64,000 nt of DNA from NCBI RefSeq assembly GCF_003790525.1, contig NZ_CP033635.1; one strand, given 5' to 3'. Position numbers and translations under genes: made by a program. The notes below the pieces were generated by a model. The model saw only the letters and a program-made list of their open reading frames with translations. It was not told the DNA's origin and searched no databases. Below, piece by piece: positions 42,180-53,063 of this stretch. This DNA comes from Escherichia coli (GTDB lineage: Bacteria > Pseudomonadota > Gammaproteobacteria > Enterobacterales > Enterobacteriaceae). The stretch's first letter is position 1; the number at the start of each line of letters is the position of its first letter.

Positions 42180-44513
42180 TCAGGCTGTTGCAGGGTCGTC
42201 ACATTTTGGCAGCCAGTCGCCGTAGCTTTCCTCTTTCAGCGTCAGGTTGGTCTGTATCCCCTGTTTGGTATGGCGCTTCTCGTAATTCAGTCCGTATTCC
42301 TTCAGCATCACCGGCAGCCCCAGCCCGAACATTTTCAGACTGAGTACATTCCGGTAGCCGTTTGCCTCCATGTAGGCCAGATAGGCGTGATAGAGGTATT
42401 TACGGTAATTGCGCGGGATGATACTGGCGTTCCCCATATACATGCCGCTGGTCTGCGGCAGGGTTTCCAGATAGCCGATAAAATCAAACGTCGGGTCGGC
42501 ATCCCGTTTGATGTTCAGTGCCTCGTCTGAGTTCTGCTGGGACTGAAGCAGTGACCGGGCGAGCATCGGGTCGCTGAACTTCTGCATCAGGTGACGCACG
42601 ATGACCGCCAGCTCGCGGGTGATTTTGTCCTTAAGCTGCGGGTCGCGCTCCTGCGGGGCTATCTGTTCCGGGAAGTGAATAATCACCCGCCGGCGTGACA
42701 CGCCGCCGCTGCGGTCGGTGAAGCGCATCGGGTTATTGTTCACGGCCAGAATTACCGCCGGGATATGCGTGGAGTATGCATCCCGGTATTTCGGGTCAAC
42801 GGACACCGCATCGCCGCCGGTGATGGCCTTGAGTCCGGCACCGTCGCCGCTCCATTTTTCCTGGTCCGGCAGGCGTATCAGTGAGAAGCCAGTTAACGCG
42901 GCACGTTCACGCGGGGATTCCAGCGTCTCGATGGTGGCCGACGTGGCGTTATCCTCCCCGGCCAGCAGGGTGGCTATTTCGGCCATGATACTTTTGCCGC
43001 TGCCGCCGGGACCGGTCACCTCCAGAAAGAGCTGCCAGTCGTAGCGGTTTGCCAGCACCATAAACAGTGCGGCCAGAATCACGTCGCGTTTTTCCGCACG
43101 GCCACCGGCGGCACGGTCAAGCCAGCACCAGAACGCGGGGGCGTGGGTCTCCAGCGTTTCACCGTCCACCGGCGGGGTGAAATCCACATCGCACAGGGTG
43201 CGCATCCAGTGTGACGGACTGTGCGGGTGGAACGTGCCGTTCTGCGTGTCGAGCACGCCGTTACGAAAGCCAATCAGGCGGCGGGAGGGGGCTTCCTGCT
43301 GCGGAATAATCAGCTTCAGGGTGTCCACCACGGAGGCCACCTTCCCGGAGGAGAACGGCGCGCGCAGACGCTGAAACAGCCCGGCCACATCCCGGGCAAA
43401 GTCCTGTGGTGGCAGCACCTTCCAGACACCATTTTCATAACGGGACAGAAGCTGGCCGTTGGCATCGACCGCGAGCGCCTCGCCGTAATGCTCATAGATA
43501 CGCATGGCCTTTTCGCTGGTACTCATGGCGGAAAACTCCGCTTCACTCATGGTGTCGAACGGGCTTTCAGCCGGTGGCCGGATGGCATCGTAAATGGCCT
43601 TACGGGTGGCCTCCCCGCCGTACTGCGTGAAGGCATCATTCCAGTCACCGAAGACCGGTGGCAGGGCAACAACACCTTCACACGCATCTGCGGCTGCGGC
43701 GGCTTTTTTCTGGCCATCACCGCTGAGGTCACGGTCAGCGGCAAGGACAATCTGACAGGCGGGGTGCTTCTGCCGGGCAAGGCTGGCCAGAGAAAGGAGG
43801 TTCACGGAAGAAAGCGCCACCATCACCGTTTCACCGGTCAGGTGATGCACGGTAAGTGCGGTCGCGTATCCCTCCGCTATCCACAGACGTTTTCCGGCCT
43901 GATTCTGTCCTTCAAGGATGTGACAGGTGCCCCTGACCTGTCCGCCTTTCAGGGTGCGCTTACGGCCGTCAGCACTGATTAACTGAAGGTTAACCAGTTC
44001 GCCGCTGTCGTCATACAGTGGCACCACAAGGTCACCGGCGCGCCAGCTCACGCCACCGGCTCTGTGTGTGCCGGTCAGCATCCGGCATTCCCGGCCGGGA
44101 AAGCCCTTGCGGGTCAGGTAGGCGTTACCGGTTCCGGGACGGGTTTTCGCCATCAGGGTTTGTGCCAGTGCGGCGGCGTTCTTCCGGGCAGCGTCTGTTT
44201 CAGCACCGGCGGCAGCCGTCACTGCCGGGTCAGCCGGGGGCAGGCTGCCGGTCACGGCAGCCACCTTTGTGGCCGCGTCGGACGGGGAGACACCAAACAC
44301 CTTTTCAACCAGTTTCAGGCCGTCACCGGCACCACACTGATTGCAGTACCAGGTGCCGCGCCCCTCCCTGTCATCAAAACGGAAGCGGTCACTCCCGCCA
44401 CAGACCGGACAGGGCTGATGACGGTTCTTCAGCACCTGAATCCCCAGCGCCGGGAGAATACGCGGCCAGTGGCCGAGCGCATGGCTGACGGTGGCGGTTA
44501 CGTTCATTTTCAT
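42180..44513 (-). CDS. alpha: P4 alpha-like primase-helicase
   Basis: 777 aa ORF with an N-terminal zinc-binding primase motif (CPVCGGSDRF...YCNQCGAGDG), next to the TGTTCACC iteron clusters. Confidence 0.8.
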   Translation of the reverse strand: MKMNVTATVSHALGHWPRILPALGIQVLKNRHQPCPVCGGSDRFRFDDREGRGTWYCNQCGAGDGLKLVEKVFGVSPSDAATKVAAVTGSLPPADPAVTAAAGAETDAARKNAAALAQTLMAKTRPGTGNAYLTRKGFPGRECRMLTGTHRAGGVSWRAGDLVVPLYDDSGELVNLQLISADGRKRTLKGGQVRGTCHILEGQNQAGKRLWIAEGYATALTVHHLTGETVMVALSSVNLLSLASLARQKHPACQIVLAADRDLSGDGQKKAAAAADACEGVVALPPVFGDWNDAFTQYGGEATRKAIYDAIRPPAESPFDTMSEAEFSAMSTSEKAMRIYEHYGEALAVDANGQLLSRYENGVWKVLPPQDFARDVAGLFQRLRAPFSSGKVASVVDTLKLIIPQQEAPSRRLIGFRNGVLDTQNGTFHPHSPSHWMRTLCDVDFTPPVDGETLETHAPAFWCWLDRAAGGRAEKRDVILAALFMVLANRYDWQLFLEVTGPGGSGKSIMAEIATLLAGEDNATSATIETLESPRERAALTGFSLIRLPDQEKWSGDGAGLKAITGGDAVSVDPKYRDAYSTHIPAVILAVNNNPMRFTDRSGGVSRRRVIIHFPEQIAPQERDPQLKDKITRELAVIVRHLMQKFSDPMLARSLLQSQQNSDEALNIKRDADPTFDFIGYLETLPQTSGMYMGNASIIPRNYRKYLYHAYLAYMEANGYRNVLSLKMFGLGLPVMLKEYGLNYEKRHTKQGIQTNLTLKEESYGDWLPKCDDPATA

Positions 44514-47852: not shown

Positions 47853-48349
47853 TTTACTGCCCGTCGTGTGGACATGTTGCTCACACCCGTCGCGCACATT
47901 TCATGGACGATGGCACCAAGATAATGATTGCACAGTGCCGGAATATTTATTGCTCTGCGACATTTGAAGCGAGTGAAAGCTTTTTCTCTGACAGTAAAGA
48001 TTCAGGAATGGAATACATTTCAGGCAAACAGAGATACCGCGATTCACTGACGTCAGCCTCCGGCAGTATGAAACGCCCGAAAAGAATGCTTGTTACCGGA
48101 TATTGTTGTCGGAGATGTAAAGGCCTTGCACTGTCAAGAACATCGCGGCGTCTGTCTCAGGAAGTCACCGAGCGTTTTTATGTGTGCACGGATCCGGGCT
48201 GTGGTCTGGTGTTTAAAACGCTTCAGACCATCAACCGCTTCATTGTCCGCCCGGTCACACCGGACGAACTGGCAGAAAGCCTGCATGAAAAACAGGAACT
48301 GCCGCCAGTACGGTTAAAAACACAATCATATTCGCTGCGTCTGGAATGA
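47849..48349 (+). CDS. delta: P4 Delta-like late-gene activator (tandem Ogr-type zinc fingers)
   Basis: 166 aa ORF with two zinc-finger modules (MIYCPSCGHVAH...CRNIYC and CCRRCKGLAL...CTDPGC). Confidence 0.8.
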   Translation: MIYCPSCGHVAHTRRAHFMDDGTKIMIAQCRNIYCSATFEASESFFSDSKDSGMEYISGKQRYRDSLTSASGSMKRPKRMLVTGYCCRRCKGLALSRTSRRLSQEVTERFYVCTDPGCGLVFKTLQTINRFIVRPVTPDELAESLHEKQELPPVRLKTQSYSLRLE

Positions 48350-48422
48350 GGGCTGCCGGTTAACACCGGCCGTCGCCGCACACCGTATTTTTATTCTTCA
48401 GCATGATGAGAAAGAGATAACG

Positions 48423-48995
48423 ATGGAAAGCACAGCCTTACAGCAGGCCTTTGACACCTGCCAGAATAACAAAGCAGCATGGCTGCAACGCAAAAATGAG
48501 CTGGCTGCGGCCGAACAGGAATATCTGCGGCTTCAGTCCGGGGAAGGCAGAAACGTCAGTCGCCTTGACGAATTACGCAATATTATCGAAGTCAGAAAAT
48601 GGCAGGTGAATCAGGCCGCCGGTCGTTATATTCGTTCGCATGAAGCCGTTCAGCACATCAGCATCCGCGACCGGCTGAATGATTTTATGCAGCAGCACGG
48701 CACAGCACTGGCGGCGGCACTGGCACCGGAGCTGATGGGCTACAGTGAGCTGACGGCCATTGCCCGAAACTGTGCCATACAGCGTGCCACAGATGCCCTG
48801 CGTGAAGCCCTTCTGTCCTGGCTTGCGAAGGGTGAAAAAATTAATTATTCCGCACAGGATAGCGACATTTTAACGACCATCGGATTCAGGCCTGACGTGG
48901 CTTCGGTGGATGACAGCCGTGAAAAATTCACCCCTGCGCAGAACATGATTTTTTCGCGTAAAAGTGCGCAACTGGCATCACGTCAGTCTGTGTAA
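48423..48995 (+). CDS. psu: P4 Psu-like polarity suppression protein
   Basis: 190 aa ORF, third gene of the sid-delta-psu late operon. Confidence 0.75.
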   Translation: MESTALQQAFDTCQNNKAAWLQRKNELAAAEQEYLRLQSGEGRNVSRLDELRNIIEVRKWQVNQAAGRYIRSHEAVQHISIRDRLNDFMQQHGTALAAALAPELMGYSELTAIARNCAIQRATDALREALLSWLAKGEKINYSAQDSDILTTIGFRPDVASVDDSREKFTPAQNMIFSRKSAQLASRQSV

Positions 48996-49368
48996 AATTC
49001 CCCGAAAATCCGCCCGTTTTTACTGAAAAAAGCCATGCATCGATAAGGTGCATGGCTTTGCATGCGTTTCCCTGCCTCATTTTCTGCAAACCGCGCCATT
49101 CCCGGCGCGGTCTGAGCGTGTCAGTGAAACTGCATTAAAACCGCCCCGCAAAGCGGGCGGGCGAGGCGGGGAAAGCACTGCGCGCATGATATAAAAGAGT
49201 ATTAAGAATTTTACAGAAACAGCTAATACAGACGCTGAAGTAAAATCATTGAGACCATTCGTGATTTGATGCAAAAAATTGCACAACATAAGCTCCTATG
49301 GTTCATAGTAATACTATTAAACCTATCTTTTCGTTGGTATATTACCCATTTTGTAATGGAGAATTGAA

Positions 49369-51501
49369 ATGCTTTCTACTCAGGATATAAACGGTTTTTT
49401 TAATGCTGTTGACTCTCTCAAAAGGTTTAAACGAGCAGAAATAAGGGACAACAAAGATAAACCACTTATTGATTCACTTTACACAGATCTATTGCCAAAC
49501 AATCACGTCTTCAAAATGTGCTACGGGGAAAACACTACATTTTTAATTGGAAGAAAAGGCACAGGAAAATCCACAATAATTCTTAAACTTGAAAGTGAGT
49601 ACAGAAAAGAATCTTCATACCTCCCATGCTATATAGATACAAAAACAGTATTCGAAAGTGTTAGAGGTGAGTATCAAAAAATAGACTACCTAAAAGGGAA
49701 GATACCTGAAGAGCATCTAGAAAAATATTTAGTCGAGCGTGCATTCATTAAAAACATCTTGAAATCAATCGGTGACGAATTGAATATTCGAGCAGAAAGC
49801 ATATTCTCAAAACTAGCAGGGATTGTTAATGCAAGCAAAAAACAAGCGGTAAAAGCAAAAATAACAAAACTACTTTTAATGGTGGACAATAACCAAATAA
49901 TAAAAGAAATTGAAATACCCGTAATAACAGAAGTAAATACTAAACTTACTAAGGCGAACGAATCAGAAAATGGAACTACCCAAAACTATAACTCTGAGCT
50001 AACTGTAAAAATCGGAACATCACAACATGAAGGTGGTGGAAAAATAGGAGCGGTAAAAGGAATCACCTCAAGACAGAAAAACAATGACGCTTGGGAAAAG
50101 AGTTTCTCTACAGCCCTTCTAAAGGTTTTTCAAATCACATCAGTAATTGAAGAAATTAAAATCATATTAAGAGAGCTAGGAGTAAAAAAGCTTGTAATAT
50201 TTTTAGACGATTTCTCTGAAGTTGAAGAGAAGACGCTAAAAAACTTCGTCGATGTTGTACTTGCTCCGCTAAATAACTGGGCTAATGATTTCATTTGTTT
50301 TAAAGTCGCTGCCTACCCAAGTCGCATATATTATGGCGACATTGATGTTGGCAAAATAGATGTGGTAAATTTAGATTTTTATAATTTATATTCTAATTAT
50401 GATAAATCTACGATGGAATCCTTATCAGCTGACTTCACCAAGAGACTTTTAAATCAAAGGCTTAATCAGTTTTGCACATTGAAGTTTGAAGATTATTTTG
50501 ATACATCTTCAGCTACTCCAGAAGAGTACTATGATCTTATATTTAAAGTATCCATGAATGTCCCTAGAATTATAGGATACATTCTTTATTACTGCCATCA
50601 AACCAATGTATCTCTTGGCAGAAAAATAAATAAAGGCTCAATCGAGAAAGCAGCTCAGACTTATTATGAGCAAGTTGTATCTAAGTTTTTCGATATTGCC
50701 ACGCATAGTCTGATGTCTTTCAGTGAAAAAGTTTCTGAACTTCAGCAAAAAGAGATTCTAAATCTCTTCGTTCAGAAATTAAAAACGATTAAGCGACAAA
50801 TAATAACAAATGAACTAACTGGCACAATTTACAATAGAGACAGAACAAATCCTTATTGTAGTCATTTTTATTTTCAACCTAATCTTGAACATTTTCTGCG
50901 TACATTGGAGCTTAATTTCTTCATTACCAAATATAATGAATTAGTAAATAAAGACGGAAACAAGGTCTCGATATATGGAATAAATTATGGATTAGCTCGA
51001 AGTGAAAACCTCAAATGGGGAAAACCTGAAGGTAATCAGTTCCGTAGTTATTTCGTAGAAAGACCATTTGATTTCAACAAAGATATCGAAGATTTCTTAA
51101 GAGAATCGAAAAAAATCGTATGTCTTAATAGCTCTTGTGATAAAACCTATCCATATGAAGAACTTGCATTTCTTGAATATAATAAAATGAGATGTATTGA
51201 ATGCCAGTCGCCTGTTGAAGTAAGATCGTTTTCTGAAAGTATCAGTTCTGAAATATCTAAAATTGACAACGCTAAACTTTTACCAAAATTAGAATTAATG
51301 ATATTACATGAACTGAATAAGGCAGACGATCATCTCCTAGCTCGAGACATTGCTGAGGAACTAGACGCTTCATCACAATTAATTGCCAAACGGGCTGAAA
51401 AATTAGACAGAAAAGGTCTTGTTTTTAGAGATAAAAGTGATGCATTAATTAAGTATTCAATAACAAATAAAGCAGTAGAAGGTTATTTCTATGATGACTA
51501 A
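49369..51501 (+). CDS. Uncharacterised P-loop NTPase with C-terminal zinc ribbon and winged-helix-like domain; candidate anti-phage defence gene in the P4 psu-int hotspot
   Basis: 710 aa ORF, conspicuously AT-rich compared with flanking P4-like genes. Walker A LIGRKGTGKST, Walker B-like LVIFLDDFSEVEE, Cys4 cluster CLNSSCDKTYPYEELAFLEYNKMRCIECQSP, and a C-terminal wHTH-like segment. Confidence 0.6.
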   Translation: MLSTQDINGFFNAVDSLKRFKRAEIRDNKDKPLIDSLYTDLLPNNHVFKMCYGENTTFLIGRKGTGKSTIILKLESEYRKESSYLPCYIDTKTVFESVRGEYQKIDYLKGKIPEEHLEKYLVERAFIKNILKSIGDELNIRAESIFSKLAGIVNASKKQAVKAKITKLLLMVDNNQIIKEIEIPVITEVNTKLTKANESENGTTQNYNSELTVKIGTSQHEGGGKIGAVKGITSRQKNNDAWEKSFSTALLKVFQITSVIEEIKIILRELGVKKLVIFLDDFSEVEEKTLKNFVDVVLAPLNNWANDFICFKVAAYPSRIYYGDIDVGKIDVVNLDFYNLYSNYDKSTMESLSADFTKRLLNQRLNQFCTLKFEDYFDTSSATPEEYYDLIFKVSMNVPRIIGYILYYCHQTNVSLGRKINKGSIEKAAQTYYEQVVSKFFDIATHSLMSFSEKVSELQQKEILNLFVQKLKTIKRQIITNELTGTIYNRDRTNPYCSHFYFQPNLEHFLRTLELNFFITKYNELVNKDGNKVSIYGINYGLARSENLKWGKPEGNQFRSYFVERPFDFNKDIEDFLRESKKIVCLNSSCDKTYPYEELAFLEYNKMRCIECQSPVEVRSFSESISSEISKIDNAKLLPKLELMILHELNKADDHLLARDIAEELDASSQLIAKRAEKLDRKGLVFRDKSDALIKYSITNKAVEGYFYDD

Positions 51502-51561
51502 ATAGAAACTAACAATGAAAAGCTCAACGCTGATTCTAGGGCGTTGAGCTACTTAATAATT

Positions 51562-52815
51562 TTAGATCCTAGCAAAATCATAGGCCGTAATATTTTGATA
51601 TCGATTAATATCTAGATAGTCAGCCCACCATTGCATCATCAAACGACGCTCTTCTAAATGCTCTGAAGTATGAATATAAGCTGCGCGTACATTGTTACGT
51701 TCTGAATGGCTCAATTGACGTTCTATCGCATCATCACTCCATAGTCCCGATTCCCCCAACGCCCCGCGTGCCATAGTCCTAAAACCATGGCCACATACTT
51801 CTGTTTTTGTGTCATATCCCATTACACGCAATGCATTGTTTACCGTATTTTCACTCATAACCTTAGTTGCGTCATGATCGCCCGGGAAAAGAAAGTCTCT
51901 ATCACCACTAATCTGCTTAAGCTGTTCTAACAATATAATCGCCTGTCGGCTAAGCGGAACTATATGCTCCTCTTTCATTTTCATGCCACGATACGAGTAA
52001 CGTACGCCTTTAATTTCTTCTCGTTTAGCAGGAATACGCCAAGTAGCGTTATCAAAATCAAATTCTTTCCAACGAGCAAAACGTAATTCACTTGAACGAA
52101 CAAAAGTTAGTAAAGAAAGCTCAACCGCAATTTTCGTCATCATACGCCCACGATATACATCAAGACGTGCCAAGAACTCATGGAAACGATGTGATGGTAG
52201 CGCCGGGTAGTGCCGCGTTTTCGCCGTAGATAACGCACCGGCCATATCAATTGCAGGATTTGAGTCTACATAATCGTTCTGAACAGCATAGCGCATAATA
52301 GCAGTGACACGTTGCTGAAGACGCTGCGCTACATCATGCTTACCACTGGCATCAACTTTTTTTATCGGTGCCAAAAGGTGACTAGTTTTAAGCTGTCGAA
52401 TATCAGACGAGCCAATATAGGGAAAGATATAAAGCTCTAGATAGCGAAGAACCCGTGCCCGATGTTCCTCACTCCAACGCTTATTGCTGGCATGCCATTC
52501 ACGAGCAATAGTTTCAAAATTATAAGCACCAGCATTAACTGCTTGGGCCTCTTTCTGTACTGCTTTTGGATCTATACCTTGCACCAGCAACTTTTTGGCT
52601 TCATCCCTTCTAGCTCTAGCTTCAGCAAGCGTCACAGTCGGCCAAACACCAAAAGCAAGACGATCCTCTTTTTTGTCGGAAGGTCGTCTATATTTCATAC
52701 GCCAATATTTAGAGCCTTTGACAGAAACCTCGAGGTACAAACCGCCACCATCGGCCATTTTATAGGTTTTATCTTTTGGCTTTGCGGTCTCGACCTGTCT
52801 GGCGTTGAGCTTCAT
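51562..52815 (-). CDS. int: P4-type tyrosine integrase (IntB-like), intact
   Basis: MKLNARQVETAKPKDKTYKMADGGGLYLEV... with a complete C-terminal catalytic region (...HGFRTMARGAL..., ...HSERNNVRAAYIHT). Begins about 165 bp from the leuX 3' end, in the same orientation. Confidence 0.85.
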   Translation of the reverse strand: MKLNARQVETAKPKDKTYKMADGGGLYLEVSVKGSKYWRMKYRRPSDKKEDRLAFGVWPTVTLAEARARRDEAKKLLVQGIDPKAVQKEAQAVNAGAYNFETIAREWHASNKRWSEEHRARVLRYLELYIFPYIGSSDIRQLKTSHLLAPIKKVDASGKHDVAQRLQQRVTAIMRYAVQNDYVDSNPAIDMAGALSTAKTRHYPALPSHRFHEFLARLDVYRGRMMTKIAVELSLLTFVRSSELRFARWKEFDFDNATWRIPAKREEIKGVRYSYRGMKMKEEHIVPLSRQAIILLEQLKQISGDRDFLFPGDHDATKVMSENTVNNALRVMGYDTKTEVCGHGFRTMARGALGESGLWSDDAIERQLSHSERNNVRAAYIHTSEHLEERRLMMQWWADYLDINRYQNITAYDFARI

Positions 52816-52978
52816 TTGGGGGCACATCCCTAATCGAAGTTAAGATGCCCCCAATTATGCCCCCAATGACATCCGGATTTCAACGTACAACCTCGGACGA
52901 CTCGGGACGTTAAAATCACTGCAAGCATTGATTTTTAAGGAATTATTGGACTTTCTCGGATGGTCTAGGAAGTGCTTA

Positions 52979-53063
52979 TGGTGCCGAAGGCCGGACTCGA
53001 ACCGGCACGTATTTCTACGGTTGATTTTGAATCAACTGCGTCTACCGATTTCGCCACTTCGGC
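52979..53063 (-). tRNA. leuX: tRNA-Leu (anticodon CAA), leuX
   Basis: Reverse complement reads GCCGAAGTGGCGAAATCGGTAGACGCAGTTGATTCAAAATCAACCGTAGAAATACGTGCCGGTTCGAGTCCGGCCTTCGGCACCA, an 85-nt class II tRNA with CAA anticodon and encoded CCA. Confidence 0.9.

Follow-up and report, generated by a model that had tools for sequence, protein, structure and literature searches.

The interval that separates psu from the gene downstream of it (48996-49368) is, with a probability that we put at close to nine in ten, the packaging (cos, cohesive-end) site of an integrated P4-like satellite, adjoined by the left junction of a defence-hotspot cassette. Such a combination of cos and hotspot junction is ordinary and has already been described for P4-like satellites. 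Our assignment builds on an exact cohesive end, on P4 genome ends that meet at 49159/49160, on the P4 gene order, on the tRNA-Leu site, and on a conserved sequence block. The first-pass annotation had instead read the interval as a terminator insulating psu, followed by an AT-rich leader with an autonomous promoter for the cargo gene.

Gene context and sequence identity of the cos site

The window (i.e., the whole 64,000-nucleotide stretch analyzed) holds an integrated P4-like satellite, in which ORF and Pfam analysis revealed alpha, sid, delta, psu, and int, with tRNA-Leu alongside (Table 1). An identical locus with the same annotation is found in E. coli Ec42. Megablast showed that delta through psu are 98.8% identical to phage P4, and the match stops exactly at the last base of P4, which corresponds to window position 49159. 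When the two P4 ends were joined and compared with the window, the alignment was continuous over 48462-49186 at 98.6% identity, with divergence beyond. The 19-nt cohesive end GGCGAGGCGGGGAAAGCAC has its sole copy in the window at this place, and it equals P4 nt 1-19 as well as the P2 cosL/cosR, which are annotated in the P2 record. The P2/P4 cohesive end and its 5'-protruding character are published (PMC3931495), and the 19 nt given in papers that cite the primary report (Ziermann & Calendar 1990, via PMC3931495, PMC2231350, and PMC9122126) are identical to those found here. In addition, the site occupies the same place after psu as the P4 cos, and the satellite gene content (alpha, sid, delta, psu, and int), with cos lying between psu and int, is that by which a P2/P4-type cos is recognized.

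We aligned 113 cos loci anchored on the cohesive end and found a block that is conserved by column from -35 to +25; the loci were gathered from IMG/VR by pattern, and positions 0-17 are hence fixed by construction. The block takes the form TGCAnnTGCATTAAAACCGnCCC...AAGCGGGC(G/A), followed by cos19 and TGCGCGC, and the same block is present in the cos of P2-like phages, since P2-like phages and prophages align to ~49118-49185 only. Its GC content is 0.66, compared with ~0.53 in psu and the spacer, and its extent agrees with the "55-bp cos region" quoted in the literature (PMC3931495, PMC2231350). TGCGCGC, to the right of the nick site, appears roughly to mirror GCGGGC of the left flank, with twofold symmetry at 5-6 of 7 positions.

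Two points distinguish the window from the P4 cos itself. At +19 the window carries T, the majority (P2-like) state, whereas P4 has C. At -33 (49127) it carries A, whereas 96% of the 113 cos loci, P4 included, have C; the change turns the left half of ATGCAnnTGCAT into GTGAA and is shared by one P2-like locus (L047). This deviation at so conserved a position counts against the cos reading, in which cleavage of the present cos is a prediction.

Table 1. Features of the P4-like satellite and of the interval between psu and the cargo gene (window coordinates; a dot marks features given without strand)
Feature	Position	Strand	Basis or remark
alpha primase	42180-44513	-	ORF and Pfam
psu, last gene of the P4 late operon sid-delta-psu	48423..48995	+	Pfam Psu, E 4e-88; 98.8% nt identity to P4
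Hairpin 1, AAAGCCATGCAtc/gataa/ggTGCATGGCTTT, 13-bp stem	49029..49059	.	-21.5 kcal/mol; z -3.9/-3.2
Phased TGCAT x3 array, candidate distal packaging (cosB-like) element	49036..49063	+	
Hairpin 2, ACCGCGCC/attccc/GGCGCGGT	49090..49111	.	z -3.5/-5.0
Conserved cos block, 61 bp (-35..+25)	49125..49185	.	Common to P2-like helper phages and P4-like satellites
GC palindrome, CCGCCCCGC-AAA-GCGGGCGG	49141..49160	.	Variable left arm plus invariant left flank of the nick site
Predicted nicks	49159/49160 (top strand); 49178/49179 (bottom strand)		
19-nt cohesive end, GGCGAGGCGGGGAAAGCAC	49160..49178	+	Exact match to P4 nt 1-19; P4 right end aligns to 49159
TGCGCGC, flanking the nick site on the right; conservation ends here, ahead of the hotspot	49179..49185	.	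95-100% conserved
Cargo-specific AT-rich leader, 182 bp	49187..49368	+	Homology break at 49186/7
Candidate promoter, TTGATG-17 nt-TAAGCT	49266-71, 49289-94	+	
Candidate extended -10, TGgTATATT	49335-43	+	
Cargo gene, 710 aa	49369..51501	+	ORF; wHTH and P-loop
Hairpin, GCTCAACGC/n10/GCGTTGAGC	51522..51549	.	-19.2 kcal/mol; between convergent cargo gene and int, right cassette end
Tyrosine integrase (int)	51562..52827	-	Pfam; adjoins tRNA-Leu(CAA)
tRNA-Leu(CAA), attachment site	52979-53063		

The GC-rich palindrome next to the nick site

The GC-rich palindrome on which the first-pass annotation was based does exist, but it had been placed at about 49123-49147, and its true position is ~18 nt to the right (Table 1). 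It is imperfect, consisting of six G-C pairs, a bulged C, and two further pairs, and its right arm abuts the 19-nt cohesive end. The minus-strand tail reported for it is indeed TTTTAATG. A pattern scan calls the palindrome terminator-like on the minus strand only, where the six G-C pairs are followed by TTTTAATGCA, and a consensus scan finds the same terminator-like site in P2. This minus-strand "U-tract" is the conserved cos sequence CATTAAAA.

With its GC-rich stem-loop lying between psu and the cargo gene and a T-run on the minus strand, the palindrome resembles a Rho-independent terminator, which could end psu transcription and insulate the cargo gene. However, both genes are on the plus strand, where the tail is GCGAGGCGGGG and there is no U-tract. 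Nor is the palindrome more stable than shuffled sequence: the fold of 49128-49186 gave z = -0.90 on the plus strand and +0.32 on the minus strand against dinucleotide shuffles. Its pairing is likewise not kept across cos sites. In 75 cos sites the covariation score was 0.117 compared with 0.114 for shuffled data, and pairing was possible in 73.8% of cells vs 73.7 +/- 0.3% with partners shuffled. All six outer pairs can form in 33 of 101 distinct sites and all eight in 10, and a contig with a P4-like backbone and the same cargo gene (L133) lacks the palindrome. Moreover, the same sequence is found in P2, whose P operon runs towards cos, yet the annotated terminator of that operon, tQ, lies elsewhere (160-181), and for this reason we rejected the palindrome as the terminator of the P2 P-Q operon. 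That it terminates psu transcription is, in our view, extremely improbable.

Within the cos site, the invariant sequence to the left of the top-strand nick supplies the right arm, GCGGGCG(G), and the left arm varies without compensation. Given this uncompensated variation, the lack of covariation, and the absence of the palindrome from L133, the hairpin is not a structure under selection but a by-product of conserved sequence, its left arm being complementary by chance in the P4 lineage. Separately, an Rfam scan of 48300-49700 returned a sub-threshold RsmY match alone (17 bits vs a gathering score of 57), which we rejected as chance.

Conserved elements to the left of the cohesive end

Unlike the palindrome, hairpins 1 and 2, which lie within the same interval, are significant in their fold z against shuffles. 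Hairpin 1 begins 34 nt past the psu stop codon and carries a weak U-tail (UUUGCAUG) on the plus strand and U6 on the minus strand; its stem is kept and its loop varies in satellites with a Psu of only 52-60% identity. If anything, a psu transcript would end at hairpin 1, which is the only credible plus-strand candidate and has a weak tail. Hairpin 2 has a T-run on neither side; GGCGCGG, which forms its right arm (-56..-50), also recurs often in P2-like phages, equally far from cos.

Underlying hairpin 1 are three phased TGCAT copies that start at 49036, 49049, and 49059, i.e., at -124, -111, and -101 from the cohesive end, and the P2 reference (L131, P2 33451-33479) has three copies at the same distances from cos. 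Across the 113 cos loci, TGCAT starts at -124, -111, and -101 in 49, 74, and 82 loci, respectively, and at least two copies are present in 102 loci vs 1 of 113 in the right-side control. GCATGC occurs in 67 of the 113 left flanks, compared with 2.7 expected, and the consensus of the array in P2-like loci alone is aGGTGCATnnnTTTGCATG. The DNA around the array is otherwise variable. Since its position is kept while the surrounding DNA varies, the array seems to be a distal component of the packaging signal, and it is probably a packaging element with a possible role in terminase recognition. A literature search on TGCAT combined with terminase and cos returned nothing relevant, the primary cos paper being known via the papers that cite it.

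In phage lambda, cos consists of the cosN nicking site and the cosB terminase-binding repeats, whose R sites are one-sided, short, phased repeats. By analogy, the P2/P4 site has a nicking site with partial twofold symmetry and a one-sided phased repeat array. The two differ in their motifs and in the overhang, which is 19 nt in P2/P4 vs 12 nt in lambda; the TGCAT repeats are found on what becomes the right-hand end of the genome, and their binding by the P2 terminase is putative. We tentatively postulate, at somewhat less than even odds, that helper and satellite share a bipartite packaging signal longer than 55 bp, in which a distal, helically phased TGCAT x3 (-124/-111/-101) and ATGCAnnTGCAT (-36..-25) would act as a one-sided element for terminase recognition, analogous to cosB, the strong hairpin overlaid on the array in the P4 lineage would double as a transcription stop, and the DNA beyond +25 would be free to vary.

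It could also be that hairpin 1 is simply the psu terminator and that the TGCAT motifs are unrelated to packaging. Its location 34 nt past the stop codon and the conserved stem with a variable loop in distant satellites point in that direction, as does the length of 55 bp given for the cos region in the literature. Yet P2-like phages keep TGCAT x3 at the same distance from cos even though their neighbouring gene differs, transcription there is opposite, and no strong hairpin is formed. We regard this simpler account as rather unlikely, if less so than the other alternatives considered here.

The orientation of the U-tracts raises a further alternative, in which the palindrome with TTTTAATG and hairpin 1 with TTTTTT are minus-strand terminators directed against antisense transcription from inverted cassettes, a role that would be secondary to cos. 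Both structures carry U-tracts on the minus strand, hotspot cassettes are found in either orientation (PMC9122126), and the P4 lineage stands out for its unusually complete palindrome and for a hairpin 1 of -21.5 kcal/mol, against a family median of -12.7. On the other hand, the cargo gene here points away from cos, so that no transcript would need stopping, the "U-tract" behind the palindrome belongs to the conserved sequence of cos, and L133 has the same cargo gene on a P4-like backbone without the palindrome. With their terminator-like look on the minus strand, hairpin 1 (U6) and the cos palindrome might keep antisense transcription from an inverted cassette out of psu and cos, but as an explanation of the two structures we consider this unlikely.

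The hotspot junction

Returning to cos and its right flank, homology with P4, with most of the 2254 E. coli records that match 48996-49368, and with P2-like prophages ends at ~49185/49186. Only 6 of the 2254 records cover at least 80% of the interval and extend past ~49186. Among the 40 matches listed, those to P4-like elements end at query ~188-201 (49183-49196), and P2-like prophages match query ~126-190 (~49121-49185) only. From +27 on, the window is unrelated to the gop leader of P4.

At this break lies the junction with the defence hotspot next to cos that Rousset et al. described (2022; PMC9122126). According to that study, the hotspot directly adjoins cos, its cassettes occur in either orientation, and P2 and P4 share the core cos signal. 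The window agrees with the published hotspot (Rousset et al. 2022, PMC9122126; de Sousa & Rocha 2022, PMC8628076) in having a variable cos-int cassette and a break right after the conserved cos; indeed, a P4 hotspot cassette is characterized by DNA that varies between cos and int while the rest of the P4-like element is conserved. The cargo protein itself (WP_042346724, identical) is listed there in Table S1A as a one-gene "hypothetical" system. Our case differs in that its cargo is a putative defence gene without a PADLOC match. To the published description we add the placement of the junction at +26, a leader that moves with the gene, and relatives that follow cos in P2-like phages.

The AT-rich leader and cargo expression

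The cargo gene starts, as annotated, with the ATG at 49369, which has a Shine-Dalgarno sequence (GGAG) upstream at 49358-49361. The AT-rich stretch described in front of it is real (GC 0.30), but it is no local island, as the whole 2.3-kb cargo gene has a GC content of 0.33 (psu, 0.53), and it begins at 49187 rather than right after the palindrome, from which it is separated by the 19-nt cohesive end and TGCGCGC. Since leader and cargo gene share a low GC content, the AT-richness is a property of the whole cassette.

Of 5426 complete E. coli genomes, only 6 contain the leader, each time with no less than 99% identity and together with the 710-aa cargo gene. In addition, a cargo gene with 96% identity is found on metagenomic contigs L133-L136, whose P4-like backbone has a different cos allele (GGCG[T/G]GGCGGGGAGAGCAT) and whose homology to the window begins right at +26. 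Identity between these contigs and the window is 78% in the leader, 74% at synonymous third positions of the gene, and 52% in the DNA left of cos. Because the leader has moved together with the cargo gene into another backbone, it belongs to the cargo module and not to P4. With 78% identity vs 74% at synonymous sites in two lineages, the leader displays no constraint past the neutral expectation and no clear footprint.

Two candidate promoter elements can be pointed out in the leader (Table 1), and L133-L136 retain both TTGATG and TGnTATATT (TGaTATATT in L133), although only two lineages are compared. A scan for consensus promoters and terminators found no plus-strand promoter in the leader, and its sole terminator was the minus-strand cos palindrome. 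The best score in a PWM scan of the leader was 9.5 (TTGATG-17-TAAGCT), a value reached by 14% of shuffles. Both types of scan also miss the mapped old-tin promoter of P2 (L131, P2 33381-33574; starts annotated at 33424/33426), so a negative scan is uninformative in AT-rich cargo leaders. Old-tin is itself cos-adjacent cargo, and its mapped transcript starts are annotated in the P2 record. The gop-beta genes of P4 reportedly have their own promoter as well.

As an alternative to a promoter in the leader, the cargo gene might lack a promoter of its own and depend wholly on transcription that reads through from the late promoter Psid when a helper induces lytic growth. The leader has no significant sigma-70 match, only weak plus-strand terminators separate psu from the cargo gene, and Psu suppresses Rho-dependent termination (PMC11718236). 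However, the cargo family also occurs in P2-like phages that have no psu upstream, the scans that are silent on the leader miss the mapped P2 old promoter too, cassettes are found in both orientations, and, in PMC9122126, 7 of 19 hotspot cassettes conferred defence on a plasmid from their native upstream DNA. Exclusive dependence on read-through therefore appears quite improbable.

An autonomous promoter in the leader, as the first-pass annotation had suggested, is plausible. It is favoured by the occurrence of both cassette orientations, by the 7 of 19 cassettes active with native upstream DNA, by the psu-less relatives, and by the precedents of gop-beta and old-tin. We take the leader to be the 5' part of an imported low-GC cassette comprising the leader, the 710-aa P-loop/wHTH gene, and a terminator hairpin. 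Most likely, such a cassette would have its own weak sigma-70 promoter, which would allow cargo expression in the lysogen at a time when the late operon is off.

The cargo gene and its relatives

The cargo protein contains a Walker A P-loop (GRKGTGKS, residue 61), one CxxC (CIEC at 609), and a C-terminal MarR-like wHTH. A PADLOC search revealed no system match, no experimental record of phage resistance turned up, and the protein gives only weak wHTH matches to CARF/Csa3-type models; we refer to the gene as a putative defence-hotspot gene. At the right end of the cassette, the arms of the hairpin that separates the cargo gene from int are kept in the L133 backbone, and this hairpin is likely to be a bidirectional terminator that closes the cassette.

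The family is widespread as a single ~710-aa gene, with members in Vibrio, Shewanella, Serratia, Bacteroidota, and cyanobacteria. Relatives with 67-74% amino acid identity directly follow cos at +26 in a psu-less Yersinia P4-like element (L126/L127). P2-like loci (L129/L130 and L139/L140) also have such a relative after cos +26, in the order gpA-cos-cargo-portal, and in several of these P2-like and satellite loci the orientation is the same as in the window. In one P2-like locus (L128), a further relative lies instead among the tail genes, flanked by a tail-fibre gene and gpU. According to a 2026 preprint, closely related defence genes are hardly ever common to P2 and P4, which suggests that the sharing of this family is older. 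The relatives came from the protein database and contig look-ups, and a search of IMG/VR found none; in the plasmid collection, the sole relative is 33% identical and resides on a 6-kb Enterobacter plasmid. A 63%-identical homologue (P0012) comes from a 4.6-kb contig of a MAG labelled "Candidatus Lokiarchaeota archaeon", which is probably a binning artefact and not an archaeal gene.

Packaging and the position of the hotspot

We propose that the terminase of a P2-like helper would nick the circular satellite DNA at 49159/49160 on the top strand and at 49178/49179 on the bottom strand. The resulting 19-nt 5' overhangs would leave psu at one end of the virion genome and the cargo gene at the other. 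Recognition would reach leftwards into the psu 3' region, where it would involve ATGCAnnTGCATTAAAA at -36..-20 and the phased TGCAT x3 at -124..-97, and on the right side the constraint would cover just 7 bp past the nick. DNA from +26 on could then be replaced without harm to packaging, and this would account for the hotspot beginning at precisely that point.

These results imply that the interval should be labelled as cos and hotspot junction instead of terminator and promoter, and the nick coordinates (49159/60 and 49178/79), together with the cassette start at 49187, help to delimit cargo cassettes. If the TGCAT array is functional, it would define a minimal packaging signal for the design of P4 cosmids and transducing particles, and it could help to explain why cassettes are swapped at one precise point. 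Should the bipartite signal be true, its one-sidedness would be the structural reason why the hotspot starts where it does in P4-like and some P2-like elements.
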